Part shown: one piece after another, positions 6,330 through 54,528 of the stretch | Numbering within the stretch: position 1 is the stretch's first letter | How the letters are laid out: every line of letters starts with the position of its first letter | From: an uncultured Actinomycetes bacterium | GTDB taxonomy: Bacteria; Actinomycetota; UBA4738; HRBIN12 | Direction: 5' to 3' | Assembly (NCBI GenBank): GCA_963713185.1 | Contig: CAVQKV010000007.1 | Coordinates: 18,537-82,536 of the forward strand | Length of the DNA: 64,000 nt | Notes under the pieces: model-generated | What the model saw: only the letters and a program-made list of their open reading frames with translations | What the model was told of the DNA's origin: nothing | Database searches by the model: none | Translations under genes and position numbers: made by a program

Positions 6330-6420
6330 CCGCACAGCGTAGGCCCGAGCCATGAGAGCCGGATGAGAAGTCCCGACCGCTCCTACCGGCGGAGTCGGAA
6401 GATCTCCGTCCGCACGTGGT

Positions 6421-15874: not shown

Positions 15875-15882
15875 CGGCTCTC

Positions 15883-18207
15883 CTAGTCGAGCAGGGCGTC
15901 GAACTCCCTCTGGGTGTCGCTCAATCGCTCCGAGAGGATCCTCGCGAGCCACCGATGCAGCGCCGCGGCCAGCTCGGGCTCCTCGGCCTCCATCCGCTCG
16001 ATCGCCGCGCCGCTGAGCCGCAGGACCACGCTCGGCGTCTCGGCCACCACGTCCGCCGTTCGCGTCACGCCCGTGTACATCGCGACCTCGCCGACGACCA
16101 CGCCGGGGTTCACCCTCCGCACGCGCATCTGGGTCCCGTCGGTCGTCACCATCTCCACGCTCAGTCGGCCCGATTCCACGACGAACAGATCGCCCGGCGG
16201 TTCGTCCTGTCGGATCAGCACCGTGCCCTCGGCCAACGGCATGCGCTCGAGGTAGCCGCGCACGCCGGGCGGCAGGTCGGCGAGCACGCCGCTCGACCCG
16301 TCCGAGGACGCCACCCGGTCGGCACCGATCTCGACCGCACGGCCGCCGACCCCGCCTTCGACCCCATCCCCGACGGGGCCGACCTGGAGCAGACGTTCCT
16401 CGCACCACTGCAAGCCCCGATCCAGGTCCGGCTCGAACCGCAGGACCGCGGACGCGCCCGCCCCCCCACGCTCGAGCTGCCTGCGCACCGGGTCCGAGAC
16501 CCCGGTGAACACGAGCTCGAACCCGTTCGCCTCCGCCAGGTGCGTGACCTTGAGGAAGGACACCACCGCCGAGGAGTCCACCCCGGTCACCCGTCGCAGG
16601 TCGATCACCAGGAACCTCGGCGGTGCCGCCTCCACGCGCTTTCGGATCCGCTCGAGCAGGCCGTTGGCCGACCCGAAGAACACGAACCCGTTCAGGCGCA
16701 GGATCTGGACGCGGTCGCCCATGGCCCGTAGCGCCGCTCGCTCGGTGGGCGGACGGTCCACGTTGCTGTGGTAGGTCTCCCCGAAGGAGACCTCGCGCAC
16801 CAGCTCGATCCGGCCGTAGCTGACCGCGAACAGGACGACCGCGAGCACGAGCCCGAGCACGACCCCGGGCAGGAACCCCCGGGCGATGATCGCCGCCAGG
16901 ATCACCAGGACGACCCCGTACTCCACCGGCGGCAGGGTCCGCCGCTTGTCCCAGACCCACTCGACCAGGAAGGCGAGGCCGAGGAACACGAGCACGCCGC
17001 CCACGATCATGCGCGGGATCAGCTCGATGACGGCGGCGCCGAACACGACCGCGGCGAGCGGGACCGCCGCGGCGATGAGCCCCGCGGCCCGCGCGTTCAC
17101 CTTCATGCGCTCGGCGAGCGCGCTCAAGCTGAGCGCGTGGTAGCCGGGGATGCCGCCGAGCGCGCCGGAGATCACGTTCAGCACCCCGGCGTCGCGCAGC
17201 TCCTCGTTCGTTTCCAGGTCCCGGTGCAAGATGATCTCGGTCCCGCTGATGTTGAACAAGATCGCAAGCACGGCCACGAACACGGCGGTGGCGATCCCCG
17301 CCCACTGGCCGAGCACCGCCGACCAGTCGGCGCCGGTGAGGGCTCGAAGGGTCCACGGCTGCCACGACTGGCGGTCGTCGAACGGACCGAACAGCAGCCA
17401 GTTGCCCGACCTCGCACCCTCGAGCGACGAGCCCGTCACGAGCATGCCGATCGCGAACGCCACGATCCCGATCCCGATCACGACCGGGATCACGAGTGGG
17501 TTCTTCACCACCCGCGTCGCGACGAGCAGGATCACGCCGAACGCTACCGCGGGAAGCCACAACTGCAGCACCCTCGACTCCGTCAGGTCGCCGATCGTGG
17601 CCAGCGATGCCGCCTCGCGCGAGGCGACGGCGATGCCGCCCTTCAGCAGCAGCCACCCCGTCCCCGCGACGAACCCCCCGACGACCGGGTAGGGGACGAA
17701 CCTGATCAGGTTGGCGCGCTTGAGCGTCCCGAGCACCAGGAACACGACGCCGCACAGGACGGTCACGACGAGCGTCGCGGCGACGACCGTGAGGAAGGCT
17801 CGCTCGGGGCCCCCGAACGCGTCGAGGGCCGTGGTCGTCGCCACGATCGCGAGCACGGCGGCCACCGTCCCCTGCAGGCTGCCGACGACCCCGCGGAGAC
17901 CCGCCCGCCACGCGAGGATCGCGAGCGTCAGCGCTGCCGCTCCGAGGTAGAGGGTGATCGCATCCGGGAGGGAATCCTCGAGATAGCCCCCGAACACGAA
18001 GGCGGCGAACGCGACCGCGAAGACCGTCTCGATGGCACCGATGACCACGCCGGCCGCGAGCACGGCGAGCATCCCCTCGGGTCGTCGCTGTCCGACCACG
18101 GTCCCTCCCCCTGAAAGCGGACTGTAGGCGCAAGCGCGGTCGAGCGCATGCGGTCGAGGGCCTGACCCACCCGAACGCCCAGACGCAGGGAGCCCCTCCG
18201 TCGCCAT
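15883..18207 (-). CDS. SulP-family anion transporter with STAS and C-terminal cyclic nucleotide-binding domain (copy B)
   Basis: 774-aa ORF collinear with copy A and carrying a 20-aa longer STAS-CNB linker. The true start may be an internal codon near MLAVLAAG. Confidence 0.9.
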   Translation of the reverse strand: MATEGLPASGRSGGSGPRPHALDRACAYSPLSGGGTVVGQRRPEGMLAVLAAGVVIGAIETVFAVAFAAFVFGGYLEDSLPDAITLYLGAAALTLAILAWRAGLRGVVGSLQGTVAAVLAIVATTTALDAFGGPERAFLTVVAATLVVTVLCGVVFLVLGTLKRANLIRFVPYPVVGGFVAGTGWLLLKGGIAVASREAASLATIGDLTESRVLQLWLPAVAFGVILLVATRVVKNPLVIPVVIGIGIVAFAIGMLVTGSSLEGARSGNWLLFGPFDDRQSWQPWTLRALTGADWSAVLGQWAGIATAVFVAVLAILFNISGTEIILHRDLETNEELRDAGVLNVISGALGGIPGYHALSLSALAERMKVNARAAGLIAAAVPLAAVVFGAAVIELIPRMIVGGVLVFLGLAFLVEWVWDKRRTLPPVEYGVVLVILAAIIARGFLPGVVLGLVLAVVLFAVSYGRIELVREVSFGETYHSNVDRPPTERAALRAMGDRVQILRLNGFVFFGSANGLLERIRKRVEAAPPRFLVIDLRRVTGVDSSAVVSFLKVTHLAEANGFELVFTGVSDPVRRQLERGGAGASAVLRFEPDLDRGLQWCEERLLQVGPVGDGVEGGVGGRAVEIGADRVASSDGSSGVLADLPPGVRGYLERMPLAEGTVLIRQDEPPGDLFVVESGRLSVEMVTTDGTQMRVRRVNPGVVVGEVAMYTGVTRTADVVAETPSVVLRLSGAAIERMEAEEPELAAALHRWLARILSERLSDTQREFDALLD
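16415..17365. repeat. partner copy of the 951-bp tract at 14106..15056
   Basis: Same evidence as the partner tract. Identity starts at ccccgatccaggtcc and ends at ggctgccac in both copies. Confidence 0.9.
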
Positions 18208-18270
18208 CGGCCTGATGACGCTCGAGACCTGCCTCCGTCGCCTGCCGGGAGGATCCCGAGGTCGCCGGGG

Positions 18271-18981
18271 CTACCTACCGGAACGTGTCGGGCTCATCGC
18301 GCGCGCCTCGCGGGCCAGTCGACGCGCGAGACGGATCGGCTCCGGCGTCCGGTACCGACCGGTGACGCCGCGTACCACGTCGAGCGCAACAGCCGCGTCC
18401 GTCCGCCACGCCGCGTGCACCATCACAGGTCGGGCGCCGCGGCGCGTTCGGAGGGCGGCTCCGACGATCTCACCACCCAGGACGAGCGGAGCCGACAACC
18501 CTCGGTCGGCTGCCGGCTCCACCGGCGCCGCGATCAGCGGTCGGACCGTCACGCCGACGGTCGGCACGTCGAGCACCGCGCCCAAGTGCAGCGCGATGCC
18601 GGCCCGGCGAGGATGATCCAGCCCCGTGCCGTTCACGAGCACGACGTCCGGCGTGAGCCTCAGTGTCCGGATGGCTCGCTCGAGCAGCGGCCCTTCGCGA
18701 AGGGCAAGGAGGCCCGGCACGTAGGGACCTCCGGCTCGTCCGTGAACGGCGGTCGAGCTGAGCGGCCCCGGTTCGCCGGCGACGAGCGCCACCGCGGCAA
18801 CCCACAGCGGATCGCCGGCGCCGCCGATCCCGACGAGACCGACGGGCCCGGCCACGAAGGCGCCCGCCACGACGAGGCGCCGTTCGGGATCGGGCCTCCA
18901 GATCCGTGGTTCGAGGCGAGCGAGCCGCTGCTGGAGCGCCTCGAGCTCCCCGGGCGCCGTGGGCCAGCCGATAGGTGTCAC
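18271..18981 (-). CDS. nfi: endonuclease V (deoxyinosine 3' endonuclease)
   Basis: Motifs YVPGLLALREGP and VNGTGLDHPRRAGIALHLG, plus length, match the Nfi family. Confidence 0.85.
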   Translation of the reverse strand: MTPIGWPTAPGELEALQQRLARLEPRIWRPDPERRLVVAGAFVAGPVGLVGIGGAGDPLWVAAVALVAGEPGPLSSTAVHGRAGGPYVPGLLALREGPLLERAIRTLRLTPDVVLVNGTGLDHPRRAGIALHLGAVLDVPTVGVTVRPLIAAPVEPAADRGLSAPLVLGGEIVGAALRTRRGARPVMVHAAWRTDAAVALDVVRGVTGRYRTPEPIRLARRLAREARAMSPTRSGR

Positions 18982-19049
18982 CTGGCGCTCGACGATACCG
19001 ACGGATCGGCAAGCGTGGCGGTCGAGATGCGCGTGTCTTCGGATCTGCT

Positions 19050-19259
19050 CTAGCCGGCGGTATGGCGCTCGAGGTGCGCGTCGATGCGAGACTCCATCGC
19101 GTCGAGCCTCGTATCCAAACGAGATCCCAAAGCGTCGATCCGGTTGCTCAGTCCATCGATCCGACTCCCGAGCCCATCGATCCGAGAGCCGAGATAGAAC
19201 AGACTCCCCAGCGACGTGGCGGCGAGCAAGCCGATCGCGGTCCAGACGGCGGCATCCAT
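19050..19259 (-). CDS. small membrane-anchored coiled-coil protein with heptad repeats
   Basis: MDAAVWTAIGLLAATSLGSLFYL (TM segment) followed by GSRIDGL GSRIDGL SNRIDAL GSRLDTR... These are encoded by three 21-bp tandem units around 19131-19195. The ORF extends to 19292. Confidence 0.55.
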   Translation of the reverse strand: MDAAVWTAIGLLAATSLGSLFYLGSRIDGLGSRIDGLSNRIDALGSRLDTRLDAMESRIDAHLERHTAG

Positions 19260-19350
19260 CTCGATCGCGAGCGTAGCACCGCAGGGTGTCACGTTTCCCC
19301 CGTGGGACCGCTGCCGAGATCGAGACCGGCGGGTTCTCGAACGGCTCCCG

Positions 19351-20949
19351 CTACTCGATGTAGCCGAGACCGCGGAGGTGCTCCTCCATCTCGTCGGCCT
19401 CGGTGTCGCTGACCGCCGTGGCCTCGTCGCCGCTCGGCATGCCGGGGATCTGCACCGCCGGCTCGGCCTCGGCCTGCGCGACCTTCGCGTCCGAACCCAC
19501 GACCTCGTGCAGCACCCGGCCGGTGTGCTCGATCGAGGCGGGCGCGTCGAGCGCCGCCAGGATCGTCGGCGCCATGTCGATCAGCAGCGGCGGCTGCTCG
19601 AACGGCTTCACGGACGGCCCGGCCGCCACGATCACGCCCTCGATGCCGGTGGTCGCCGCTGATCCAGTCGGCGTCCTCGATCGCGGACTTCGCGTGGGTG
19701 AGCGAGTACCGCTCGGCCGGCTCCATCAGGATGTCGGGCGCGGTGTCGGCGTGCTTGCCCTTGAAGATCTCCTCGCGCCGGTAGATCGCCTTCACGGGCT
19801 TGCGGCCGGTCTTCGGGTCGACGAAGCTCGACGAGCGCGTCCATCACCTGGTCGCGCACCTTCTCGAAGTCGGCCGGGTCGACGATGCCGTCGGGCTCGC
19901 GCCCGGCCAGGTTGATCGAGACGCCCTCACCGGTCGAGCGGATCGTCGTGAACGCCTTGGTCTTGGACCAGTTCACCGACTGCGGCAGCGAGACCTTCCC
20001 GTGCAGGCCGAGCATGTCGTAGACCTTGCGCGCGACCTTGCGCACCGGCCCCCACTGCATCGGCCCGAAGACCACGTTCGACGCGCTGAACTCGAGGAAG
20101 CCGAACTCTTCAGCAGGTGGTCCATGTGGATCGTGCGCGTGACCGACTGGAACCCGTGGTCGCGAGATGAACAGGACCAGGTCGTCGGGCTCGCGTGCGC
20201 GAGACGAACGAGCCGATCGCGTCGTCGAGCTGCGCGTAGATGTCTGCGCACCTTCCCGCCGATCGCGGTCTCGTGGTTCTTCGCGTAGTCGGGGTGGTCG
20301 GGCGCGACGTAGTTCGACAGCGCGTGCTGCGTGCGGTCGACCGAGACCCAGACCGAGGCCATCAGGTCCCAGTCGGAGTTGTCCATCAGCCACTCGGTCG
20401 CGCGGATCCGCTTGCCGGTGACCTCGAGCGCCTCGTCCAGGTACTGCGTCGGGCCGGTTGCGGTAGGTCGTCCAGGACATGCCGTTGATCGCCCACGGCA
20501 CGCCGGCCTTCTCGAGCTGCTCGGCCAGGTCGGCGGGCTGCGTGTACGGTGCGCCCCTTCGGCAGCACGCCGCCGGCGAGCGATCTTCCCGTTGATCTCC
20601 GGCGGCGGGAACATGCAGCGGCACGTCGGCGTAGCACCCCGACCTTGCCGGCCGCCGAGAGGTCCTCGACGAACGTCCGCTCCTTGATCGACTTGTAGGT
20701 GACCGGGTACTGCTTGTGGGTGCCCGGCACGGTCTCGAGGATGTCGTAGACCCCGTGATCGGCCGGGTCGACCCCCGTCAGGAACGACGGCCACGCCGCC
20801 CACGAGTGGGTCGGCACCGTCGAGCGCAGGACGCCCTTCTGCCCCCGGTCGATCAGGGCCTGCAGGTTCGGCAGGGCGCCCCGCTCGAGCAGGGGTTCGA
20901 GGATGCGCCAGTCGGCGCCATCCCATCCGATGAGCAGCACTCGTGGCAT
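19351..20949 (-). pseudogene. nucleotide pyrophosphatase/phosphodiesterase (alkaline phosphatase superfamily) gene with ~11 frame breaks
   Basis: The N-terminus MPRVLLIGWDGADW...STVPTHSWAAWPSFLTG (metal-site Thr) is family-typical. Conserved segments then hop among all three frames (ORFs 20386..20949, 19973..20965, 19632..20624, 19289..19795, 19351..19635), down to ...RGLGYIE. Confidence 0.75.
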
Positions 20950-32521: not shown

Positions 32522-32854
32522 TCATGACCGACCGGGGGATAACCCCACGTCGGCCACGACCCGTTCGGTCACCTGGATCTCCCCCGGAACACCATGGCTC
32601 TCCATCCGGCTGGCGGTGTTGACCGTGTCGCCCCACAGGTCGTACATGAACTTGCGCCGCCCGATGACGCCGGCGACCACCGGACCGGTGTCGATCCCGA
32701 TCCGCAGGCCGAGGCCGTCCCTGACGATCCAGATCGGGCTGAGCAACGAGACGATCCCGGCAGCGAGCGTCAAAGCGCCCTTGCGGATGCGCTCGCCCTC
32801 TGTGTCGTCTGGCAGAGCCCCGATCGCTGCGAACCGTTCGAGGATGCCGATCAT
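32522..32854 (-). pseudogene. C-terminal remnant of a class III adenylate/guanylate cyclase
   Basis: Only the second half of the catalytic domain is present ([37 protein letters not shown]). The F-x-D-I-x-GFT metal-binding half is absent. Confidence 0.65.
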
Positions 32855-38317: not shown

Positions 38318-40282
38318 ATGGGAGGCACCGAGACGCCGGCAGCGACCCTCGACGAGGCCAGGGCGGCCTGCGACCGGCGGGCGTGGGAACGTGCGCACGA
38401 GCTCTTCGCGGCCGTGGCCGCCGAGCGCCCGCTCGAGGCAGAGGATCTCGAGCGGTTCGCGAAGGCCGCCTACTGGATCGGAGCCGCGAGCGGGGCGATC
38501 TCGGTCCGGGAGGCGGCGTACGAGGCCTTCCTCGCGCGCGGCGACAACGTGCAAGCCGCGTCCTGCGCGCTCACCCTGCAACGCCAGCACGCCTCGATGC
38601 TCCAGGACTCGATCGCGGCGGCGTGGTTGAAGCGGGCCGAGTGGCTGCTGGTCAGCGCCGAGGAGTCCACGGCCCACGGATACCTGGCCATCGCCCATGC
38701 CGATGCGGCGCGGGCACGTGGGGACGTCGCCGAGGCGACGAACCTGGCCGTGCGAGCCGTGGAGATCGCGAGCCGGTTCGACGACCGCGACCTTCCGACG
38801 TGGGCCCTCATGCGGCGGGGCATGTTCCTCGTGGACGCGGGCCGGGTGGACGAGGGGTGGCCGCTGATGGAGGAGGTCGCCTCGGCCGCGGCCGGCGGCG
38901 AGCTCGGCACGTTCACCACGGGGGCCGTCCTGACCAACGTCGTGAACATGTGCCGCGACCTCGGCGACTTCCGTCGCGGCAGCGAATGGTCCGACGCCGC
39001 GATCCGCTGGTCCGAACGGCAGCAGATCACGGGCTTCCCGGGGATCTGTCGGGTCAACGGGGCGGCGATCCTGCGCATGCTCGGCAGGCTGCGGGAGGCG
39101 GAGGAGGAGGCGCGCGCTGCCTGGCAGGAGCTGATGGAGTTCAGCCCGGCCCACGCCGCGGCGGCGCAGCACGAGCTGGGCGAGGTGCAGCTCCGGCTCG
39201 GAGACCTGACCGCGGCCGACGAGGCCTTCCGACAGGCGCGCGACCTGGGAGAGGATCCACAGCCGGGGCTCGCGCTGCTCCGACTCGCGCAGGGCGATCT
39301 CGATGTGGCTGCGTCTTCGATCCGCCGGAGCCTGCAGGTGGCCGCGTTCGACCGCTTCGCCCGTGCCCGGATGCTGCCGGCGCAGGCCGAGATCGCCGGT
39401 GCGGCGGGCGACGCGCAGACGGCCCGGGCCGCCCGGGACGAGCTGGCGGAGATCGCTCAGCAGGTCGCCTCTCCGGCCATCCGCGCGGCGAACGAGTGGA
39501 CGGCCGGCCTGACCGCGCTCCTCGAGGACGAGCCCGAACGCGCTTCGGGTCACCTCGGCGAAGCCCGGAAGCGATGGGACGAGGTCGGAGCCCCGTACGA
39601 GTCGGCGAAGGTGTCGCTCGCGCTCGCCGACGCGCAGCTCGCCGCCGGCCACGAGGAGGCCGCCGCGACCGAGCTCGATGCGGCGCGGACCGCGTTCGAA
39701 CGGCTGGGGGCGCACCTCGACGCGAGGCGAGCGGCGGAGCTGCTCGCGCGGACCCGGAGCGGCGGCGCGTCGTCCCGCACGGTTCGAACGTTCCTGTTCA
39801 CGGACATCGTCGGCTCGACCGCGCTGATCGAGGTGATCGGGGACGAGGCCTGGAACGACCTCCGCCGTTGGCACAACGAGACGCTCCGCTCGACGTTCGC
39901 CGATCACGGCGGCGAGGAGATCGATCACGCGGGCGACGGCTTCTTCGTCGCCTTCCCCGATCCCGCGCGTGCCGTCGCCTGCGCGGCGGAGATCCAGCGA
40001 CGGCTCGCCGAGCATCGACGGATCCACGGGTTCGCACCCCAGGTGCGGATGGGTCTCCACGCCACGACGGCGACACGGGACGAGACCGGCTACACGGGCC
40101 TCGGCGTGCACACGGCGTCCCGGATCGGCTCGCTCGCGGGGGCGGGTGAGATCCTCGCGAGCGCCGAGACCCTGGCCGCCGTCCCCGACGCGCGGGGTTC
40201 GGAGCGGCGGAGCGTCTCATTGAAAGGGATCGTCGAGCCCGTCGAGGTGGTCTCGATCGACTGGCCCTCGGCGAAGGACTGA
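38318..40282 (+). CDS. TPR-like sensor domain protein with C-terminal class III cyclase domain
   Basis: A ~480-aa helical-repeat N-terminus paralogous to the LuxR regulator at 43374..45003. C-terminal cyclase domain (FLFTDIVGST...HAGDGFFVAF...GVHTASRI). Confidence 0.85.
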   Translation: MGGTETPAATLDEARAACDRRAWERAHELFAAVAAERPLEAEDLERFAKAAYWIGAASGAISVREAAYEAFLARGDNVQAASCALTLQRQHASMLQDSIAAAWLKRAEWLLVSAEESTAHGYLAIAHADAARARGDVAEATNLAVRAVEIASRFDDRDLPTWALMRRGMFLVDAGRVDEGWPLMEEVASAAAGGELGTFTTGAVLTNVVNMCRDLGDFRRGSEWSDAAIRWSERQQITGFPGICRVNGAAILRMLGRLREAEEEARAAWQELMEFSPAHAAAAQHELGEVQLRLGDLTAADEAFRQARDLGEDPQPGLALLRLAQGDLDVAASSIRRSLQVAAFDRFARARMLPAQAEIAGAAGDAQTARAARDELAEIAQQVASPAIRAANEWTAGLTALLEDEPERASGHLGEARKRWDEVGAPYESAKVSLALADAQLAAGHEEAAATELDAARTAFERLGAHLDARRAAELLARTRSGGASSRTVRTFLFTDIVGSTALIEVIGDEAWNDLRRWHNETLRSTFADHGGEEIDHAGDGFFVAFPDPARAVACAAEIQRRLAEHRRIHGFAPQVRMGLHATTATRDETGYTGLGVHTASRIGSLAGAGEILASAETLAAVPDARGSERRSVSLKGIVEPVEVVSIDWPSAKD

Positions 40283-40388: not shown

Positions 40389-42023
40389 GTGGCGCAGGAG
40401 GGTCCCGACGGCGTGACGGAACGCACGAGCGGAGCGGCCGACGGTCGGCGGCCGGACCGCCGGGTGCGCGACCCGGAGCGGCTTCCGCCGTTCGTGAGGC
40501 CCGCGGCCGACTTCATCGCCAAGATCCGCGCGACCGTGCACACGAAGCTCCTCGCCGGCTTCCTCGTGATCGCCGTGCTCCTCGTCGCGATGGGGGTCAC
40601 GAGCATCCTCGTCATCCGGGAGATGAACCAGGAGGCGCATCAGCTCATCACGTTGCAGGAGCAGACCGACGTCGCCCGGCAGGCGATCTACTCCGTCACC
40701 TCGCAGAGCCATTTCCGGGCGATGGCGCTGATCACGGAGGAGGACGTCTGGAACGACAAGATCGTCACGGCGAAGGAGGCGTTCGTCGACGAACTGGACA
40801 CGTTGGCCGCGATGGGCGGACCGGACGTTGACGAGGCGGTCGACGGGATGCGAGCGATCGACGAGCGCTACGCTGCCGCCGGCGCCGAGGTCCTGGCCCT
40901 GTACACGGCGGGCGACATCGGAGGCGCGCTCGACCTGCACATCACCGCCGAGCACACGATCTCCCACGAGCTCGAGGACGAGCTCAATCAGCTGATCGAC
41001 TCCACGGAGGAGCGGATCGCCGTGGCGTCAGGCGATCTGTCGTCGCTGCACCGCTTCCTGCTGATCGCCGTCGGGATCTTCTCGGGCGTGAGCCTGCTGA
41101 TCGCGCTGGGTCTCGGCGCGGCCCTGTCCTGGTCGGTCATCCGTCCGGTCCGCAAGATGGACCTCGCGCTGGCCCGGATCGCCGACGGCGATTTCGGACA
41201 GCAGATCGACGTCCCCAACCGGGACGAGTTCGGCCGGCTGACGACGAACCTCAACCGGACCAGCGGACAGCTCGCGACGCTCTACCACGACCTCGAGGAG
41301 CTGAACCAGAACCTCGAGAAGACCGTGGAGGAACAGCTCGGCCAGCTCCGACGGGCGGAACAGCTCCGCCGCTACCTCGCACCGCAGGTCGCCGACGCCG
41401 TGCTCAATAGCGGGGCGCCGGTATCGCTCAGCTCGACGCGCCGGAACCTGAGCATCCTGGTGGCCAACATCCGCGGGTTCACCTCCATGTCCGAGGGCAT
41501 GGAGCCCGAGGAGGTGATCGACGGGCTCAACCAGCACTTCGCGGTCATGACCGACGTCGTCTTCCGCCACGGCGGAACGCTCGACAAGTACATCGGCGAC
41601 GGGATCCTCGCCTTCTTCGGAGATCCCATCCCGTTCGAAGATCACGCCGAACGGGCCGTCGTGACGGCGCTCGAGATGCGGCAGCGCCTCCGCGGCCTCC
41701 GCACGAGGTGGTCGCTCGAGCGCGAGGGTGGACTGAACGTGGGGATCGGGGTCAGCACCGGATACGTGACGGTCGGCAACATCGGTTCGGACACGCGGAC
41801 CGAGTACACGGTGATCGGTAACCACGTCAAGCTGGCGTCGTACCTGGCGCAGACCGCCGCACCGGATCAGATCCTGGTGTCGGAGCGCACGCTGACCGAC
41901 TCCGCGATCCGGGAGCGCGTCGATGCCACCGCCCTGGATCCGCTCGACGTGGAGGGCTTCCGCCATCCGGTCAAGGTCTTCGAGGTCGACGACGTGCCCG
42001 CGCCGCTCCGTCGGCGACTCTGA
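40389..42023 (+). CDS. membrane receptor with helical sensor, HAMP and a degenerate class III cyclase homology domain
   Basis: Two TM segments flank a ~190-aa extracytoplasmic helical domain. HAMP (VIRPVRKMDLALARIADGDF). The cyclase domain reads VANIRGFT, KYIGDG and GNHVKLASYL. Confidence 0.85.
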   Translation: MAQEGPDGVTERTSGAADGRRPDRRVRDPERLPPFVRPAADFIAKIRATVHTKLLAGFLVIAVLLVAMGVTSILVIREMNQEAHQLITLQEQTDVARQAIYSVTSQSHFRAMALITEEDVWNDKIVTAKEAFVDELDTLAAMGGPDVDEAVDGMRAIDERYAAAGAEVLALYTAGDIGGALDLHITAEHTISHELEDELNQLIDSTEERIAVASGDLSSLHRFLLIAVGIFSGVSLLIALGLGAALSWSVIRPVRKMDLALARIADGDFGQQIDVPNRDEFGRLTTNLNRTSGQLATLYHDLEELNQNLEKTVEEQLGQLRRAEQLRRYLAPQVADAVLNSGAPVSLSSTRRNLSILVANIRGFTSMSEGMEPEEVIDGLNQHFAVMTDVVFRHGGTLDKYIGDGILAFFGDPIPFEDHAERAVVTALEMRQRLRGLRTRWSLEREGGLNVGIGVSTGYVTVGNIGSDTRTEYTVIGNHVKLASYLAQTAAPDQILVSERTLTDSAIRERVDATALDPLDVEGFRHPVKVFEVDDVPAPLRRRL

Positions 42024-45078: not shown

Positions 45079-46287
45079 TCAGCCCAGATCGACCGTGTCC
45101 GGTTCGGTGTGCTTGAGCCACACGGCCGTGCCCGCCGCCACCGGGGCGAGGAGCAGCAACACCATCGCGGACAGGCTCGCCTTGGCGCCCCAATCGGTGA
45201 GGCCGACCGTCAGGCAGAGGAGCGCGCAGACGGGCAGGGCGATCTCAGCTATGCGGTAGAGCTCGGGCTGGGTGCGTCGGAGCTCGAGGGTCCAGGCGAT
45301 GAGCGCGTCCGAGAGCATCGCCGCCGCGAGCGAGCCCACCAGCAGCCAGCGCACCGCATCCGGCAGGGGCCGACCCGCATGCTCGACGGTGTTGAGGACC
45401 GCCGCACCGCCCGCGGCGATCGCGACCACCAGCGGGAAGTGCAGGTTGAGCCAGAGCTGGGTCCTCCGCGGGACCGGAGCACGGTACGAGACGAGGTCGA
45501 AGTAGATCCACCACAGACCGATGGCGACCACAACCCCCAGCAGGCCGATCACGATGAACTCGGCCTCGAGCGGATGGACGTCGGCCATGCCGGTCACCGC
45601 CCCCACGATGACCTCGCCGAGGACGATGATGACGAACAGCCCCATCCGTTCGATCAGCGACGGCGTCGTTGAGATACGCGCATCGCCCCACTGGGTCGCG
45701 GGTGGCTTCCACCGGTACATGCCGATGACCCACCCCGCCACCTCGGCGACCAGCGCCGCCGCCCACAGCCAGTACCGGAGCGGCCCGTCGAACGCGACGC
45801 TGACCACGAACAAGACGGTCGCGACGAGGTAGCCCGCCGAGTACGGGACCGACCCGGGCCGGTGGTGGGGGTCGTGCAACCCCGTGCGGAACCACAGGAT
45901 CACCAGGATGAAGGTGTTCGCCGCGTAGGCGAGCGCGAACCCCGTCGAGCCGTCGCCCGGGATATCCCCGATGAACACGGCCATGACCGCCACCGCGAGC
46001 ATCTGGGCGAACGTGAAGATGCGGACACTCATGTCGTTGGTGGTGTGGAGATCGTGATAGAGCGTGCCGTTCAGCCACGAGGACCAGACCGCATAGAAGA
46101 GGAAGACGAACCAGCCGATCCCCGACCACGACGGATGCGTGGCCAGGCGACGGGCGAGCTGGGAGATCACCACGACGAAGACCAGGTCGAAGAACAGCTC
46201 GAGGAAGGTCACGCGCCGGTCGGTCGACCGATCCTCGTACCGACCCGGCGGCTGCCACAGGCGCCGGAAGGTGGAGTGCCGGGTCAT
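45079..46287 (-). CDS. low temperature requirement protein A (LtrA) family membrane protein
   Basis: The VTFLELFFDLVFVVVISQL motif and about 10 TM helices. Confidence 0.85.
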   Translation of the reverse strand: MTRHSTFRRLWQPPGRYEDRSTDRRVTFLELFFDLVFVVVISQLARRLATHPSWSGIGWFVFLFYAVWSSWLNGTLYHDLHTTNDMSVRIFTFAQMLAVAVMAVFIGDIPGDGSTGFALAYAANTFILVILWFRTGLHDPHHRPGSVPYSAGYLVATVLFVVSVAFDGPLRYWLWAAALVAEVAGWVIGMYRWKPPATQWGDARISTTPSLIERMGLFVIIVLGEVIVGAVTGMADVHPLEAEFIVIGLLGVVVAIGLWWIYFDLVSYRAPVPRRTQLWLNLHFPLVVAIAAGGAAVLNTVEHAGRPLPDAVRWLLVGSLAAAMLSDALIAWTLELRRTQPELYRIAEIALPVCALLCLTVGLTDWGAKASLSAMVLLLLAPVAAGTAVWLKHTEPDTVDLG

Positions 46288-46465
46288 GGATCGAATGTAG
46301 CCCGCCCTGCGGCCGAAGGGGCGTACGTCGCAACCGCTTCCGAACGCCTCGCGAGCGGGCGCCCTCCGGGGCGGTTGCCGATGCCCACGGGGTCGTGGAA
46401 CACTCCCTCGCCGCCCGGGGCGGGCCTGGTGCCCTCGCGGGTGTCGGGCGCGTCAGGAGGAGCGG

Positions 46466-47538
46466 GTGCAGCGTCGAAGCGGTCACGTCCTCGTCGTCGA
46501 TGACGACGCGTTGAACCGACGGCTCGTCACCGCGACGCTCGCCCGAGAGGGCTCCGGACGAGCTCGGCCACCAACGGGGCCGAGGCCCTGAAGGCGATCG
46601 GCGAGGACCCGCCCGACGTGATCCTGCTCGACATCGAGATGCCGGGGATGGACGGGATCGAGGTGCTCGAGCACATCAAGTCGGATGAGAAGCTCCGGCA
46701 CCTGCCCGTGGTCATGATCTCGGGCGTGGACGACACGGAGAGCGTCGTGCGGTGCCTCGAGACCGGCGCCGACGATTTCCTTCCCAAACCGTTCGACGCG
46801 GCGATCCTGCGCGCCCGCATCAACGCCGGGCTCGACCGCAAGGCTCTCCACGAGCTCGAACGCGATCGCGTCCGCGACATCTTCACCCGCTTCCTGCCGG
46901 AGTCCATGGTGGATGAGGTGCTCGCGCGGACCGACGGCGATGCGCGGATCCGGCCGGAGCTGCTGACCGGCACGGTCCTGTTCGGTGACCTGCGCGGGTT
47001 CACGAGCTTCGCGGAAGGCCGTCCGGTGGACGAGGTCGTCGAGGCGATCAACACCTACCTCACGCTGATGACCGATGCGGTCCTCGACCACGGCGGCACG
47101 CTGGTCGACTACATGGGCGACGGCATCATGGCCGCGTTCGGCGCCCCGGTCGCGAACGACGACCACGCGGATCTCGCGATCGCGGCCGCGCGCGCGATGG
47201 CGGGCGAGCAGCTCGCGACGTTCAACGCGTGGCTCTCAGCCACCGGTGTCGAGCAGCCGCTGCGGATGGGGATCGGGATCAACTCGGGGCCGGTGCTGTC
47301 CGGGAGCGTCGGGTCGCCGCGACGCCTGGACTACGCCGTGATCGGCGACACGACCAACACCGCGTCGCGGATCGAGGCGATGACGAAGGACCTCGACCAC
47401 GCGGTGCTGTTCTCGGAACAGACCAGGGACGCGCTGCGCGAGCTGCCGGAGGACGCGGTCTCGCTGGGCGAGTTCGAGATCCGCGGCCGGAGCGCCGCGA
47501 TCAAGCTCTGGGCCCTCGACGTCGAGGAACCCGCATGA
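46466..47538 (+). CDS. response regulator receiver fused to class III adenylate/guanylate cyclase, one frame break near 46553
   Basis: GTG 46466 follows AGGAGGAG. The REC N-terminus HVLVVDDDALNRRLVTATLAREG is in one frame and NGAEALKAIGEDPPDVILLDIEMPGMDG...KPF is in ORF 46618..47538. Cyclase motifs FGDLRGFT, YMGDGIMAAFGAP and GDTTNTASRIE. Confidence 0.85.
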
Positions 47539-50500
47539 CCGCCCTCGACGACGAGATCCGAACCCTCAAGGCGCGCGTCGCCGAGCTCGAGGCCCACGAG
47601 GCCGGCCGCGAGCGCGCCGAGAAGGTCCAGGACGCCCTGTACCGCATCGCCGAGACGGCCAGCGTCGCCCAGGACATGCAGGACTTCTACCGGAAGATCC
47701 ACGCGATCGTCGGCGAGCTGATGTACGCCGACAACTTCTACATCGCGCTCTACGACGACGAGCGCGACATGATCAACTTCCCGTACAACATCGACGAGGA
47801 TCCCGACCAGCCGGATCCGGATCTCTGGGAACCCCTCGGCAGCGGCTACGCCGCCGGAACGACCGCCCACCTGCTGCGGACCGGCCGGCCGATGTTGCTC
47901 ACGGCCAAGGACTGGAGACGGCTGGCCGCGCGGGGCGAGATCGTGCTCGTCGGCGAGGAAGCCGTGTCTTGGCTCGGCGTCCCGCTCCAGACCGAGGGCA
48001 AGACCCTCGGCGCCCTCGTCGTCCAGAGCTATCGGGAAGACCGTCGGTACACCGATGCGGACAAGGAACTGCTCACCTTCGTCGGCCAACACATCGCCTC
48101 TGCACTCGAGCGTACGCGCCTGATCGACGAGACTCGCCAGCGCAACGCCGAGCTCGCCCTCATCAACGACGTCCAGCGCGGCCTGGCGATGAACCTCGAC
48201 ATGCAGGCGATGTACGACCTGGTCGGCGACCGGCTCCGGGAGATCTTCGACGCGCAGGTCGTGGACATCGCCGTTCTGGACGAGGGGGCCGGCCTCCTCC
48301 GCTTCCCCTACACCATCGAGAAGGGCGTCCGGTTCCACGACGAGCCGATGGCCGTCTTCGGGTTCCGCAAGCACGTCCTGGAGACCCGAGAGCCGCTGCT
48401 CATCGAGGCCATCACGCCGGAGCTTCTGGCCGAATACGAACAGCCCGCCGTCATCTCGGGGGAGCCCGCCAAGTCCTCGGTCTTCGTGCCGTTGGCCGTC
48501 GGAGGCAGGGCTACCGGGGTGATCTCCCTTCAAAACGTCGACCGGGAGCACGCGTTCGGCGACGCGGACGTGCGTCTCCTCACGACGCTCGCAGGCAGCC
48601 TGAGTGTCGCGCTCGAGAACGCCCGGCTGTTCGAGGAGACACGGCAACGCAACGCCGAGCTCGCTCTCATCAACGACGTCCAGCGCGGCCTCGCGCAGAA
48701 CCTCGAGATGCAGGCGATGTACGACCTCGTCGGCGACCGGCTCCGCGACATCTTCGACGCGCAGGTCGTGAGCGTGGCCGTGCTCGACGAGTCGGGAACC
48801 CTCGTGCGGTTCCCCTACATCATCGAGAAAGGCGAGCGCTTCTTCGTCGAGCCGCAGGAGCCTGTCGGGTTCCGCAGGCACGTCCTCGAGGCGCGCGAGC
48901 CGCTCCTGTTCGAGGCCATCACGCCGGAGCTCCTCGAGGAATGGGATCAGCCCAGCGTTCTCGTGGGCGAGCAGCCGAAATCGTCGGTCTGGGTACCTCT
49001 GGTCGTCGGGGGCAGAGCAACAGGTGTCATCTCGTTGCAGAACGTCGAGAAGGAGCGTGCGTTCAACGAGGCCGACCAGCGGCTGTTGATGACGCTCGCG
49101 GGAAGCCTGAGCGTCGCGCTGGAGAACGCACGACTCTTCGAGGAAACCAAGCAGCGCAACGCCGAGCTCGCGCTCATCAACGACGTCCAGCGCAGCCTGG
49201 CCGAGAACCTCGATATGCACGCGATGTACGAGCTCGTCGGGGACCGCCTCCAGGAGATCTTCGACGCCCAGGTCGTCGACATCGGCGTGCTCGACCGTGA
49301 CGCGGGCAAACTTCGGTTCCCGTACTCGATCGAGCGCGGCGTCCGCTACCCGGACGAAGTGGTCGACACCGGCGGTCTGGGTGGCTACGTCATGCAGACG
49401 CGGCAGCCGCTCCTGATCAACGAGCGGGTCACCGAGAAGACGCTGGAGCTGCTGGGCGAGGCACCGCTGCCCATGGGTTCGGGCGAACCCGCGATGTCGG
49501 TGCTGTTCGTCCCGCTCATCGTGGGCGGCGAGGCCACCGGCCGGATCTCGCTGCAGAACCTCGACCACGAGCACGCGTTCAGCGAGGCGGACGTTCGCCT
49601 GCTCACCACGATCGCGGGAAGCCTGAGCGTCGCGCTCGAGAACGCCCGGCTGTTCGAGGAGACCCGTCAGCGCAACGCGGAGCTCGCCGTGATCAACGAC
49701 GTGCAGCGGAGCCTGGCCGAGAACCTCGACATCCAGGCGATGTACGACCTCGTCGGCGACCGCATCCGAGACATCTTCGACGCCCAGGCCGTCGACATCG
49801 GCGTGCTCGAGCGCGAGACGGGACTGATCTGGTTCCCGTACTCGATCACGCGCGGCGTTCGCGACCCGAAGGAGACGCTCGAACCCAGCGGCCTGACCAC
49901 TTACGTCATGCAGACGCGCGAACCCCTCCTGATCAACGAGGGACTCGACGATCGGGTCGCCGCGATCGGCGGCCCGATGGGGGTGCGCGCGGGCGGATCG
50001 CCGAAGTCGTTGCTGTTCGTCCCCTTGCAGGTAGGCGGCGAAGCGACCGGCCGGATCTCGCTCCAGAACCTGGATCGCGAACACGCGTTCAGCGAGGCGG
50101 ACGTTCGCTTGCTGACGACGATCGCCGGCAGCCTGAGCGTCGCGCTCGAGAACGCCCGCCTTTTCGACGAGACCCGGCAGCGCAACGCCGAGCTCGCGCT
50201 CATCAACGACGTGCAGAGCGGGCTGGCCGAGAACCTCGAGATGCAGGCCATGTACGACCTGGTCGGCGACCGCATCCGCGACATCTTCGACGCGCAGGTC
50301 ATCGCGATCGGCATCGTGAATCGGGACACCGGTCTGCTCGACAACCCGTACATGTTCGAGAAGGGCGCCCGTTACACGACCGAGCCGATGTCCATCGAAG
50401 GCGGGCCGACCAAATTCGTCCTCGACACCGGGGAGACGCTCGTCATCAACGAGCGGTTCACGGAGCGCGCCAACGAGCTCGGACCCGCGCCGAACTGGGG

Positions 50501-53500
50501 CGAGGGGGGTGATCCACTGTCGGCCGTCTACGTCCCTCTTGTCGTGGGAGGTAGGGCGATCGGCCGAATCACCCTGCAGAACATGGACCGCGAGAACGCG
50601 TTCACCGACGCAGACGTCAGCCTCCTGACCACGCTCGCCGGGAGCCTGAGCGTCGCGCTCGACAACGCGCGCCTGTTCGAAGAGACTCAGGCAGCGCAAC
50701 GCCGAGCTCGCGCTCATCAACGACGTCCAGAGCGGCCTCGCCGAGAACCTCGAGATGCAGGCGATGTACGACCTCGTCGGCGAGCGGATCGGGCAGATCT
50801 TCGACGCGCAGACCGTCGACATCGGGGTCGTGGACGAGGCCGGCGCTCAGATCTGGTTCCCGTACTCGATCGAGCGCGGAGTCCGACTGATCGACCATCC
50901 GATCGAGATCATGGGGTTCCGCAAGATCGCCCTAGAGACGCGAGAACCGGTCGTCGTCAACGAAGACATGGAGCGGCGATGTATCGCGGCCGGCAACCCG
51001 CTCGCGATCGCCGGAGAACCCTCGCGGTCGTCCCTCTTCGTCCCCATGCTGATCGGGAATCGAGGGACGGGGGTCATCTCGCTCCACAACCTCGATCGCG
51101 AACACGCGTTCAGCGAGGCCGACGTCAGGCTGCTCATGACGCTCGCCGGCAGCCTGAGCGTTGGGCTCGAGAATGCCCGGTTGTTCGAGGAAACGGGCCA
51201 GCGTGCGGCCGAGCTCGCGATCATCAACAACGTCGGCCAGGCGCTGGCCGAACAGCTCGAGCTCGACGCGTTGATCGAGCGCCTCGGCGATCAGCTCCGT
51301 GAGGTGTTCAGCGCCGACCTCGTCTACGTCGCCTTGCACGACACGGCGACCGACATGATCGACTTCGCTTACTACAGCGAGAACGGGGAGCGCGGCGAGA
51401 ACCCGTCGATGCGCTTCGGGGAGGGGCTCACGTCGAGGATCCTGCAGACGCGGGTGCCGTTGCTCCTCAATCGACCGGAGGCTTTCCAGGAGCTCGGTAT
51501 CCCGGTGGTGGGGACCCCGGCCAAGTCGTACTTGGGGGTCCCCATCATCGCCGGCACGGCTGCCATCGGCGTGATCAGCGTGCAGCACATCGAGCAGGCC
51601 GGACGCTTCACCGAGGCGGACACGCGGCTCCTGTCCACGATCGCCGCGAACGTCGGCGTCGCGATCCAGAACGCCCGCCTCTACGCAGAAACCGGGCGTC
51701 GGGCGAGCGAGATGGCGGCGCTCGCGGAGCTGGGACGCGAGATCGGCGCGCTCCTGGACCTCGAGCCGATCCTGGGCGAGATCGGCGACCGCGCCCGCGA
51801 TCTCCTCGACGCCGACACGAGCGCGGTCTTCCTGGAGCGTGAGGGCCGTTTCGTGCCGGTCGTGGCCCTCGGTGAGTTCGGTGAGGCCCTGATGAGCGAC
51901 ACGATCACGCCCGGCGAGGGGATCGTCGGCGACCTCGCGCTCCGCGGGACGGCGGAGGTCGTCAACGATGTCCGCGGGGACCCGCGCGGGGTCCAGATCC
52001 CTGGGGCGGAGTACGAGGACCTCGAGCGCCTGATGGCGGCTCCGCTCGTGGCGCGCGGCCGGGTCATCGGGGTGATGGCGGTCTGGCGCACGACGCGTGC
52101 CGCGAACCCGTTCACCGGGGAAGACCTCGACTTCCTCGTCGGGCTCTCCCAACAGGCGGCGATCGCGATCGAGAACGCCCGTCTGTTCCAGATGTCGAAG
52201 GAGGCCGAAGAGGGCTACCGCAAGCAGAAGCAGTACTTCGAATCGCTCGTCGAGATCAGCCCGGTCGCGGTGGTGACCATGGATCGCGATCAGACGGTCT
52301 CCGGCTGGAACCCCGCCGCGGCGCGGCTCTTCGGCTACTCGCCGGACGAGGCGATCGGTCGGACGATCGACTCCCTGATCGTCCCCGAGGATCTCGCGCA
52401 GGAAGGTGACGACATCGTGCGGGAGGCGACCGAGCGAGGCCGGGCACACCGGATGTCGAGACGGCACCGGAGCGACGGCCACCTCGTCGAGGTCGAGATC
52501 GACATCGTGCCGCTCGTCGTCGACGGCGAGCACCAGGGCTACTACGCCATCTACCACGACGTCACCGAGCTCCAGGAGGCGCGCAGGACGGCCGACGAGG
52601 CGAACGAGTCCAAGAGCGCTTTCCTCGCGACGATGAGCCACGAGATCCGTACGCCGATGAACGCGATCATCGGGATGAGCGGCCTTCTCGCGGAGACCGA
52701 GCTCGACGCGGAGCAGCGCGAGTACGCCTCGACCATCGCCCGTAGCGGCGAGGCCCTGCTCACGATCATCAACGACATCCTCGACTTCTCGAAGATCGAG
52801 GCCGGGCGGATGGACCTCGAACTCGCGCCGTTCGACGTCCGCGAATGCGTGGAGGCGGTCGTGGACCTGATCGGACCGATCGCGCAACGCAAGGGGATCG
52901 AGGTCACCTACGGGATCGAGCCCGAGACGCCGGAGACCGCGGTCGGCGACACGAGCCGGCTCCGCCAGATCCTGCTCAACCTGCTGAACAACGCCGTGAA
53001 GTTCACCGATGGGGGCGAGATCGCGGTCCACGTCGAGGCGGCGGAGGGGCCGTCCCCCGATCGCATCGCGTTCCACGTGAGCATCCGCGACACCGGGATC
53101 GGGATCCCACCTGATCGGATCGATCAGCTCTTCCGGTCGTTCACGCAGGTCGACGCCTCGACGAGCCGCCGGTACGGAGGTACCGGGCTCGGTCTCGCGA
53201 TCAGCCGGCGGCTTGCCGAGCTGATGGGCGGCACGGTCACGGCGGAGAGCAGCGGCGTCCCTGGGGAAGGCAGCACGTTCCACGTGACGTTCGAGGCGGG
53301 GGTGACCGACATGACGCCGACCGCGCTCCGGCGGGACGGATCGTACGCGGGGCGCCAGGCATTGATCGTGGACGACAACGCGACGAACCTCCTGCTGATG
53401 ACCGCGCTCCTGTCGGCCTGGGGCGTCGAGACGACGAGCGCGTCCTCGGGCAACGAGGCACTCGGCGCGATCGACGGAGGCGGGTTCGACGTCGCGATCC

Positions 53501-54528
53501 TGGACATGCTGATGCCCGGGATGGACGGGCTCGAGCTCGCGACGCGGCTGCACGAGCGCGCGCCGGGGCTACCGACGATCCTCGCCTCGTCGGTCCCGCG
53601 GCACGACGTGTCGAGCGATCCCCGGTGGGAGGGGGCCGGGATCGGTGCGATCATCGTCAAGCCGATCAAGGCCTCGGCCCTCCACGGCGCCCTCGCGATC
53701 GTCCTGGAGATAGAGCCCGGCGGGGAGGCGGCGCGAGAGGAGACCGCGGGAAGCCTCGACCCCGAGCTCGCCTCGCGGCACCCGCTCCGGATCGTCCTCG
53801 CCGAGGACAACGTCGTGAACCAGCGGCTCGCGCTCCGGCTGCTCGAGAAGATGGGCTACCGGGCCGACGTCGCGGCCAACGGGCTCGAGGCCGTCGAGGC
53901 GGTGGAGCGGCAGCACTACGACCTCGTCCTGATGGACGTGCAGATGCCGGAGATGGACGGGGTCGAGGCGACCCGCCACATCCTCGAGCGGTGGCCGGAC
54001 GGCGAGCGTCCCTGGATCGTCGCGATGACGGCCGAGGTGATGCGGGGCGACCGCGAGGGGTTCCTCGCCGCCGGGATGAACGACTACGTCGCGAAACCGA
54101 TCCGCCCGCAGGAGCTCGTGGCGGCGATCACCCGCACGCCAAGCAGGGAGCAGCCGGCTGGCGCGAGCGACCCGACCGAGAGGGCACCGGCGGTGGACGC
54201 CTCGGTCCTCGCCAGGCTTGCCGAGAGCATGGGCGGCGATGACGCCTTCGTGGCCGAGCTGATCGAGCAGTTCGTGACCGACTCGCCGGGGCTGGTCGAG
54301 ACCGCTCGCCACGGGCTCGAGGCCGGCGACGCGGACGAGGTCCGTCGGGCGGCGCACACCCTCAAGTCCAACGCCGCGACGTTCGGGGCGAACGAGCTCG
54401 CCGACCGCAGCAGCCGGCTCGAGGCCGCCGCGAAGGCGGGATCGCTCGGAGTCGGTATCGAACAGGTCGAGGCCATCGACGAAGAGCTCGCTCGGGTGCA
54501 CGCCGCGCTCCGGTCGAGCATCGCATAG
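47535..54528 (+). CDS. soluble multi-GAF hybrid sensor histidine kinase (coiled coil - 9 GAF - PAS - HisKA - HATPase - REC - REC - HPt), one frame break at ~50689
   Basis: ATG 47535 overlaps the upstream TGA. ORFs 47229..51302 and 50755..54528 join across a 1-nt insertion. H-box SHEIRTP (His codon 52639-52641). REC Asp sites [11 protein letters not shown] and [11 protein letters not shown]. HPt [11 protein letters not shown]. No TM segment. Confidence 0.85.
48138..51705 (+). repeat. array of seven tandem ~507-516 bp GAF-module repeats inside the hybrid kinase gene
   Basis: The seam motif cag/caa-cgc-aac-gcc-gag-ctc (QRNAEL) recurs at 48138, 48645, 49152, 49668, 50178, 50692 and, diverged, at 51199. 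Near-identical 40-mers such as ctgagcgtcgcgctcgagaacgcccggctgttcgaggagac recur at unit ends. Confidence 0.85.

Follow-up and report, generated by a model that had tools for sequence, protein, structure and literature searches.

A receiver-linked class III cyclase and a nine-GAF hybrid histidine kinase encoded in one operon: a probable phosphorelay to cyclic nucleotide synthesis in uncultured Actinomycetota

Does a giant soluble histidine kinase, encoded directly 3' of a class III nucleotidyl cyclase with a receiver domain of its own, control cyclic nucleotide synthesis by phosphotransfer? The question is raised by a two-gene operon on the + strand of a 64,000-nucleotide (nt) stretch of DNA, hereafter the window, from an uncultured soil bacterium of the Actinomycetes (assembly GCA_963713185.1, contig CAVQKV010000007.1, positions 18,537 to 82,536). 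The first gene (46466..47538) encodes a receiver-cyclase, which we call the REC-cyclase, and the second (47535..54528) a multi-GAF hybrid histidine kinase. Judging from their domains, their residues and their linkage in other genomes, we consider it probable that the two genes form a four-step His-Asp-His-Asp phosphorelay with cyclic nucleotide synthesis as its output.

The REC-cyclase gene begins with a GTG codon 4 nt downstream of a Shine-Dalgarno-like AGGAGGA (46455..46461, +, by sequence inspection). This start agrees with the N-terminus MQRRTGHVLVVDDD of the intact orthologue at locus L081 (L081:4931-6004), to which the window cyclase is 92% identical, and the product is 357 amino acids (aa) long, like that orthologue, once its frame is repaired. 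The stop codon TGA (47536-47538) and the kinase ATG at 47535 share an ATGA overlap, which had been noticed in a sequence-only reading of this DNA and is confirmed here from the sequence and from Pfam; a further Shine-Dalgarno-like motif, GAGGAA, lies 5 nt 5' of the kinase ATG. The kinase is 2330 aa long with one base removed, and intact orthologues of 2326 aa (P0003) and 2323 aa (P0005) are 80% identical to it. Scans for promoter and terminator consensus sequences around the operon found nothing, and such scans are uninformative in DNA of ~70% GC, the GC content of the window.

Domains were called with Pfam profiles at their curated cut-offs on the frame-repaired translations. Behind a predicted helical or coiled-coil leader (aa 1-29, 47535..47621, judged by sequence alone), the kinase carries nine GAF stretches (PF01590, PF13185, PF13492; GAF_2 412 bits against a cut-off of 28.6, 6e-125; GAF 363 bits, 1.3e-109) and a PAS domain (aa 1567-1680, 52234..52575; PAS_4 4.5e-16, PAS 1.5e-13). 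The kinase core that follows (52612..53295) consists of HisKA with the H-box SHEIRTP (aa 1693-1757, 1.7e-22) and HATPase_c (aa 1804-1920, 8.2e-30). Of the two Response_reg stretches, the first (53341..53730) retains the DD, D, S and K residues of receivers and the second (53791..54129, aa 2086-2198) is the better match, and the protein ends in an Hpt domain (aa 2241-2323, 54256..54504; 4.6e-15). HisKA, HATPase_c, both receivers and Hpt thus all score above their cut-offs, as expected of a hybrid kinase with Hpt. The motifs SHEIRTP, NNAVKF, DTGIGI and GGTGLGL, the receiver Asp residues in LDM/LMD and the Hpt His are canonical by inspection. No convincing transmembrane segment is present in 19-residue windows, where the Kyte-Doolittle maximum of 1.76 falls within a GAF beta hairpin. 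The soluble architecture of nine GAF, PAS, HisKA, HATPase, two receivers and Hpt that the sequence-only reading had described is therefore borne out by both Pfam and hydropathy.

In the REC-cyclase, the receiver (aa 8-119, 46487..46821; Response_reg 1.8e-31) retains every residue expected of a phosphorylatable CheY-like receiver: an acidic pair, a phospho-acceptor Asp within ILLD, a Ser and a Lys-Pro. Across 10 REC-cyclases each of these residues (D12, D13, D56, S86 and K108, numbered as in L081) is either invariant or conserved to at least 90%, and the nearest solved receiver is PleD REC1 (E about 1e-25 for the domain). A helical linker (46822..46971) leads into the class III nucleotidyl cyclase catalytic domain (aa 170-345, 46972..47499; Guanylate_cyc 2e-21; PF00211 76.8 bits against a cut-off of 21.9). 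The linker holds an FTRFLP motif that, in an alignment to 6FHT, matches the FGRY cyclase-transducer element of Synechocystis Cya2, a motif named in PMC5995499. Among 10 orthologues F-x-D-L-R-G-F-T, G-D-G and N-x-A-x-R are invariant. Both metal-binding Asp residues and the transition-state Asn and Arg are kept, and because all catalytic residues are intact the window cyclase is probably active.

Strong support for the two proteins acting in one pathway comes from other genomes: a REC-cyclase adjoins the homologous kinase in 13 of the 14 related loci examined. In a cyclase-query search that covered a single genome for each species, all five of the nearest relatives (L001-L005, Actinomycetes or Actinomycetota metagenome-assembled genomes (MAGs), cyclase 59-90% identical) encode a HisKA-HATPase-REC-REC-Hpt kinase directly 3' of the cyclase. 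In a kinase-query sample of nine homologue loci, eight have an adjoining REC-cyclase. The gene-neighbourhood check that the sequence-only reading had called for thus came out in favour of linkage.

Both the arrangement of the genes and their surroundings vary among these loci. L081 and L084-L086 share the gene order of the window with a 4-nt overlap. In the Gaiellaceae loci L082 and L083 the order is inverted, kinase before REC-cyclase, again with a 4-nt overlap, and the context is unrelated (LigD, ligase, ketoacyl synthase). The pattern differs in a more distant clade (L087-L090, with L087 coming from a Chloroflexota MAG). There the kinase, 3446-3938 aa long, has no Hpt; a separate Hpt gene (112-118 aa) comes next, and the REC-cyclase after it. 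The Hpt domain of the window kinase shares 43% identity with the separate L087 protein. The genes overlap in almost all loci. The linkage is strongly conserved. Persistence of a gene pair while Hpt is fused or split, while gene order is reversed and while the neighbourhood changes is the classical signature of one shared pathway, and comparative genomics makes control of the cyclase by the kinase through Hpt and receiver, as proposed in the sequence-only reading, the most likely explanation.

The input half of the kinase is less constant than the relay. In L003 (10918-16756) and L004 (10941-18393) the cyclase is followed by two to three SBP_bac_3 genes for periplasmic binding proteins and a membrane kinase with a dCache-HAMP-GAF sensor and the same REC-REC-Hpt tail. 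Because these two loci carry a dCache-HAMP sensor with one GAF on the same relay core, the conserved unit, as read from the sequences, is the REC-cyclase plus the REC-REC-Hpt kinase core, with an exchangeable sensor.

Adjacency could in principle arise without a direct relay, if the Hpt domain fed a distant regulator while the REC-cyclase was served by another kinase or acted as a mere phosphate sink. Hybrid kinases can have several partners, the two internal receivers have unassigned roles, and a TPR-LuxR regulator is encoded nearby, though it has no receiver. Yet the linkage persists whatever the gene order, the context or the form of Hpt, fused or split, and the genes overlap almost throughout. 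Within 40 kb there is also no second free receiver. The only other receiver in the window that is not part of a kinase belongs to an ordinary OmpR-type regulator (5652-6581, -) 40 kb from the operon, which has its own adjacent histidine kinase (about 4321-5001, -) and is unrelated to the operon pair; the earlier suggestion that the cyclase receiver is the nearest free one holds. We regard an adjacency without direct phosphotransfer as very unlikely.

In the relay that we favour, the kinase would be a soluble cytoplasmic protein, presumably a dimer, whose nine GAF modules sit on continuous signalling helices and are followed by PAS. Autophosphorylation of the HisKA histidine would be set by the GAF and PAS domains as they bind ligands or change state. 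Phosphate would then pass to an internal receiver, probably the second, onwards to the C-terminal Hpt histidine, and finally to the phospho-acceptor Asp in the receiver part of the REC-cyclase. Phosphorylation of this PleD-like receiver may alter dimer geometry, and the change, transmitted through the helical linker and the cyclase-transducer element, would switch the cyclase and so the synthesis of a cyclic nucleotide of uncertain base. The array would integrate several cytoplasmic inputs.

Some points weigh against this relay. We infer both the existence and the direction of phosphotransfer, as well as activation by phosphorylation, from gene neighbourhood and domain logic. The kinase has two internal receivers, either of which may relay, the second more probably. 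At L091, among the nine loci reached from the kinase, no REC-cyclase is present within the available DNA; the kinase there is followed by another giant GAF gene that runs off the locus. Finally, the cyclase and kinase genes are both frame-broken in this assembly and are possibly inactive in this genome. As an observation on L091 itself (15729-20518), the second multi-GAF protein (>3200 aa) begins with a MalT-like TPR region.

The frame breaks deserve a closer account. The sequence-only reading had joined the kinase across a single break, and that break is present in the assembly; a second one, in the cyclase gene at about 46549-46552, had been overlooked, and the cyclase start given in that reading silently spans it. 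The kinase break is an extra base at about 50687-50689 in GAGACTCAGGCAG, within the linker LFEET|RQRNAEL that joins GAF units 6 and 7. At the cyclase break a G run is one G short, GGG in the window against GGGG in L081. Both are single-base indels, the kinase one outside any homopolymer. The comparison with L081 (GCA_049587975.1) is informative here, as this independent MAG contig is collinear with the window from 40.3 to 55.3 kb at 84-89% nucleotide identity, and its copies of both genes are intact (357 aa and 2326 aa). Aligned to L081, the cyclase gene shows a single isolated gap. The kinase gene likewise shows one isolated single-base gap, at the break, while its remaining gaps compensate one another and sit in divergent loops. 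Past each break the coding signal (third-position GC 0.92) and the conserved residues resume at once in the new frame, and past the kinase break in-frame coding includes 21 linker codons 5' of the first ATG of the second open reading frame (ORF).

If both breaks were real, the cyclase and the kinase would be pseudogenes or split genes in this genome. That each operon gene carries an indel, and that no homopolymer surrounds the one in the kinase gene, speaks for such a dead operon. The difference at the cyclase break, in contrast, is one of G-run length, third-position GC and conserved residues continue straight after each break, and intact orthologues of the same length exist for both proteins. 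In addition, the closest relatives, all on contigs of MFD-named MAGs (L001-L004), have numerous breaks in these two genes, with at least five in L001 and one in the cyclase tail of L002, a pattern that fits indel-prone assemblies and suggests systematic indel errors in these high-GC sequences. A dead operon is in our view quite unlikely. Since each break amounts to one inserted or missing base and both genes have intact orthologues, the two are most likely sequencing errors, a conclusion we hold with high though incomplete confidence. An apparent cyclase-kinase fusion ORF in L002 (9839-13096) was rejected as well: it results from the frame error in the cyclase tail, and the true stop abuts the kinase ATG.

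Which nucleotide an active cyclase would make is less clear than that it is a class III enzyme. The solved catalytic domain nearest to it is that of the Synechocystis Cya2 guanylate cyclase (2W01, E 8e-31). Like Cya2, the window enzyme has a motif resembling the cyclase-transducer element and an acidic residue where adenylate cyclases carry Lys. In Cya2, Glu488 sets base specificity, and the exchange E488K leads to adenylate cyclase activity (PMC5995499). The window enzyme differs in having Asp (TLVDYMGDG) in place of this Glu and Ala (DYAVIGD) in place of Gly at the second position, a non-canonical pair, and in being under the control of a receiver rather than CHASE2. Across the orthologues the pair is Asp/Ala, Asp/Thr or Gln/Thr. 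Close relatives share the Asp of the window protein, orthologues of the Gaiellaceae and Chloroflexota type have Gln instead, and Lys is found in none. The adenylate cyclase pair, Lys with Asp or Thr at the second position, is thus absent, and on these residues an adenylate cyclase label is unwarranted. Set against the Glu of Cya2-like guanylate cyclases, the window residue is acidic, yet it is Asp. Because the base-specifying residue is Asp, the base of the product is uncertain, and cyclic GMP (cGMP) or mixed specificity is possible.

We now turn to the input of the kinase. The sequence-only reading had held nine GAF domains to be far beyond the usual number, which does not hold within the family. 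A whole-kinase search returned 4030 proteins below 1e-30, and the best 120 of these are all multi-GAF hybrid kinases of 1693 to 4067 aa whose lengths differ in steps of ~169 aa. A hidden Markov model (HMM) made from the window units finds 6 to 20 units in these 120 proteins, with nine in the middle of the range. Similarly, an exhaustive profile search of 1.84 billion representatives returned 15,298 proteins below 1e-30, and among its top 150 clusters (50% identity) 72 have at least nine units and 23 at least twelve, with a maximum of 20. Family members come from Gaiellaceae, Actinomycetota and Chloroflexota MAGs, and their database labels say only 'GAF domain-containing protein' or 'PAS domain S-box protein'. 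The family to which the window pair belongs is widespread but unstudied, and a count of nine is ordinary for it.

The same HMM finds nine full-length units across aa 25-1554 of the window kinase. Unit 1, the cap unit, occupies 47622..48134. The inner array of units 2-7 (48135..51195) has unit starts at 48135, 48642, 49149, 49665, 50175 and 50688, and is followed by unit 8 (51196..51693) and the divergent last unit 9 (51694..52197). The period of ~510 nt exceeds the 500-nt limit of Tandem Repeats Finder, which reported nothing, and we therefore used our own pairwise comparisons. By these, units 2-7 are 60-78% identical in protein and 76-83% in DNA; protein identity is ~44% for unit 8 and ~30% for units 1 and 9. 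Tandem units of ~510 nt are a known assembly hazard, and the array could in principle have been inflated by repeat mis-assembly. The DNA identity of even the inner units is nevertheless just 76-83%, nine-unit orthologues of equal length occur in independent assemblies, and every window unit has its own orthologue in other genomes, apart from shifts or losses within single relatives. Given this divergence and unit-by-unit orthology, we reject an assembly expansion as exceedingly improbable.

Orthology also differs between the ends and the middle of the array. Units 1, 8 and 9 match the first, penultimate and last units one-to-one in most relatives compared. Unit 1 has its orthologue in the first unit of five of six relatives (46-63% identity), unit 8 in the penultimate unit of most, and unit 9 a one-to-one orthologue in close relatives. 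Between kinases that are 80% identical overall, the inner units pair up out of register and some find no partner: units 3, 4 and 5 of the window kinase correspond to units 4, 5 and 6 of P0003, and window unit 6 has no match in P0003 and is 88% identical to unit 8 of P0004. Between clades, inner units are 65-72% alike within one protein versus 57-58% across clades. Since the end units are one-to-one and the inner orthology is shifted, the array is best read, from sequence, as a fixed frame (unit 1 and units 8 and 9) around an inner block that evolves by gain, loss and reordering of units.

Structure prediction supports the GAF assignment and hints at how the units may be joined. The AlphaFold2 model of a single unit (unit 2) is a confident GAF fold with a predicted local distance difference test score of 90, and its Foldseek matches are all GAF domains at probability 1.00. 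The model of a tandem pair shows an uninterrupted 45-residue helix that begins as the final helix of the first unit and continues into the second, with the domain orientation uncertain (predicted template modelling score 0.55), and supports a predicted helical spine along the array.

To compare pocket and scaffold, we took unit residues 60-75 and 91-113 as the pocket-side 'lid' and the helices and core sheet as the core. Among paralogous inner units within the window the lid is 33% identical and the core 73%, a contrast that is partly circular because the lid was chosen from variable columns, so that the orthologue comparison alone is independent. Orthologous units 1-7 across genomes are 67-90% identical in the lid versus 82-93% in the core. 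Including units 8 and 9 extends the lid range to 45-90%, and the lower lid conservation of these two units (45-58% in some pairs) counts, like the circularity, against our reading of the input. The lid identity of 67-90% kept by orthologues argues that the pocket side of each unit may be under its own constraint. Because the pocket sides of the inner units are unit-specific yet conserved, this argues that the array would read several different cytoplasmic inputs rather than one product nine times.

Could the array nevertheless sense the product of the cyclase? The sequence-only reading had raised a closed loop in which one or more GAF units bind the cyclase product. The pair would then act as a self-reinforcing or self-limiting switch; this would extend the phosphorelay and is compatible with it, and is speculative. 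In the summed profile comparison with the Protein Data Bank (PDB), the units score best against the cyclic AMP (cAMP)-binding GAF tandem 1YKD, from Anabaena CyaB2. Foldseek, run on the unit-2 model, ranks first the GAF domain of Leptospira Lcd1 with cAMP bound (5W10, E 2e-11, 20% identity), a weak positive. There is also a precedent, as PMC4411481 reports that cAMP binding to the CyaB2 GAF domains raises cyclase activity. These matches are, however, non-discriminating: the heme-binding DosS/DosT GAF, the PtsP GAF and the HD-GYP GAF score about the same in both profile and fold. The profile and fold searches against the PDB consequently assign no ligand class, as cAMP, heme and unknown-ligand GAFs are too close to one another, which is a further point against our reading of the input.

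The sequence motifs of the units bear on the same issue. The units read LQN[VLM]DRE.AF.[ED]AD[VQ], keeping Asn, Phe and Asp, three of the five residues of the NKFDE fingerprint of cyclic nucleoside monophosphate (cNMP)-binding GAF domains, with V, L or M in place of Lys and V or Q in place of Glu. The pocket sides, moreover, are 33% identical between units, which would be unexpected if all bound one product, and operons of distant relatives encode canonical cNMP_binding proteins as more obvious readers. With NKFDE incomplete and pocket sides unit-specific, nine sensors of one product appear unlikely, and we consider a closed loop through even some of the units doubtful. A bilin photoreceptor was rejected too, as no Cys column that could bind the chromophore is conserved among the nine units; the single Cys is in a variable loop of unit 7.

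The likely canonical readers lie beside the operon in L087, L089, L090 and L091, where cNMP_binding domains occur in MFS transporters, a SpoIIE phosphatase and a Crp-like regulator. In L090 (18371-20312) the cNMP_binding-SpoIIE and Crp-like genes are downstream of the Hpt and REC-cyclase genes. From their domains, such cNMP-binding-domain proteins are most likely what reads the cyclic nucleotide. Within the window itself, candidate readers are a SulP-STAS-cNMP_binding transporter gene (15883-18207, -) and, nearby, a weak cNMP_binding-like match (13751-13984, -); both have their parallel in MFS-cNMP_binding transporters beside the operon at L087 and L089-L091.

As for the remaining surroundings, an LtrA gene (45079-46287, -) lies upstream of and divergent from the operon, between the TPR-LuxR and cyclase genes. 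The LtrA stretch (window 45084-46247) is absent from the otherwise collinear L081 and present in L084, an insertion or deletion difference between close relatives. Further upstream are the TPR-LuxR regulator, a flavin monooxygenase, a HAMP-cyclase and a TPR-cyclase, and downstream of the operon is a small glyoxalase-like (3-dmu-9_3-mt) gene. The two additional class III cyclases, a TPR-cyclase and a HAMP-cyclase, are at 38318-40282 (+) and 40389-42023 (+), and a short cyclase-like tblastn match is found at about 32597-32725 (-). The genome seems rich in cyclases.

How does this arrangement relate to known systems? The sequence-only reading knew of no characterised system of this layout, and we agree: a search of the open-access literature for the architecture of multi-GAF kinase, Hpt and REC-cyclase, for Thermoleophilia/Gaiella and for REC-guanylate cyclases found no description. 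In cyanobacterial CyaC (Spirulina/Anabaena) and Dictyostelium ACR, histidine-kinase and receiver domains are fused to a class III adenylate cyclase. Both resemble the window pair in coupling two-component phosphotransfer to a class III cyclase through a receiver beside the catalytic domain. Unlike here, where a kinase with Hpt and a REC-cyclase are separate proteins, theirs is one polypeptide with no Hpt step; in addition, the sensor of the present family is an array of 6-20 GAF units and its cyclase lacks the adenylate cyclase Lys.

PleD is a nucleotide cyclase activated by phosphorylation-driven dimerisation. PleD and WspR (REC-GGDEF) are similar to the window cyclase in placing a nucleotide cyclase, active only as a dimer, under receiver control, and different in that their GGDEF domain makes cyclic di-GMP, whereas a class III (Guanylate_cyc) domain here would make a mononucleotide cNMP. 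Kinases of the ArcB, BarA/GacS and TorS type share the HisKA-HATPase-REC-Hpt relay logic and the canonical motifs. The window kinase, in contrast, is soluble, with two receivers and a giant GAF input, and its terminal receiver would be one fused to a cyclase, not to a DNA-binding domain.

Two further comparisons concern the GAF domains. In CyaB1/CyaB2 (GAF-GAF-PAS-cyclase) and the mammalian phosphodiesterases PDE2/5/6/10/11, helix-joined tandem GAF domains regulate a cNMP enzyme, as may be the case here. In those proteins two GAFs with the full NKFDE are fused to the enzyme, while here nine with an incomplete motif are on a kinase with a phosphorelay link. Multi-GAF cyanobacteriochromes have many GAF domains in series on one signalling protein; unlike theirs, the window units have no conserved bilin-binding Cys, and the hosts are non-photosynthetic Actinomycetota and Chloroflexota. 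The individual parts are all known, and the value is in their combination and its testability.

A bolder reading joins these strands. The GAF array may be a modular 'sensor tape' in which each inner unit has its own ligand specificity, units are added, dropped or reordered by unequal recombination, so that each lineage would reset the choice of cytoplasmic metabolites it integrates, and some units possibly sense the pathway's own cyclic nucleotide. The signals would be summed along the helical spine and passed to a relay that, in Actinomycetota and Chloroflexota, drives a cyclase of unusual specificity, possibly for cGMP. Taken as a whole we hold this to be tentative and rather unlikely.

If the relay works as proposed, it would be a widespread, apparently undescribed module that ties two-component phosphorelays to cyclic mononucleotide synthesis in abundant, barely cultured soil lineages (Thermoleophilia-like Actinomycetota, Gaiellaceae and Chloroflexota). 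Arrays of 6-20 units with conserved end caps and a fast-remodelled inner block would offer a natural system for studying signal summation along a helical spine, and equally for following the evolution of a sensor repertoire by gain and loss of units. cGMP signalling is rare in bacteria, and with its non-canonical base-specifying residue the cyclase may make cGMP, or another cNMP, under the control of a phosphorelay. The sensor tape, if true, would show a new way for one bacterial sensor to integrate many inputs, together with a new phosphorelay-controlled cGMP pathway.

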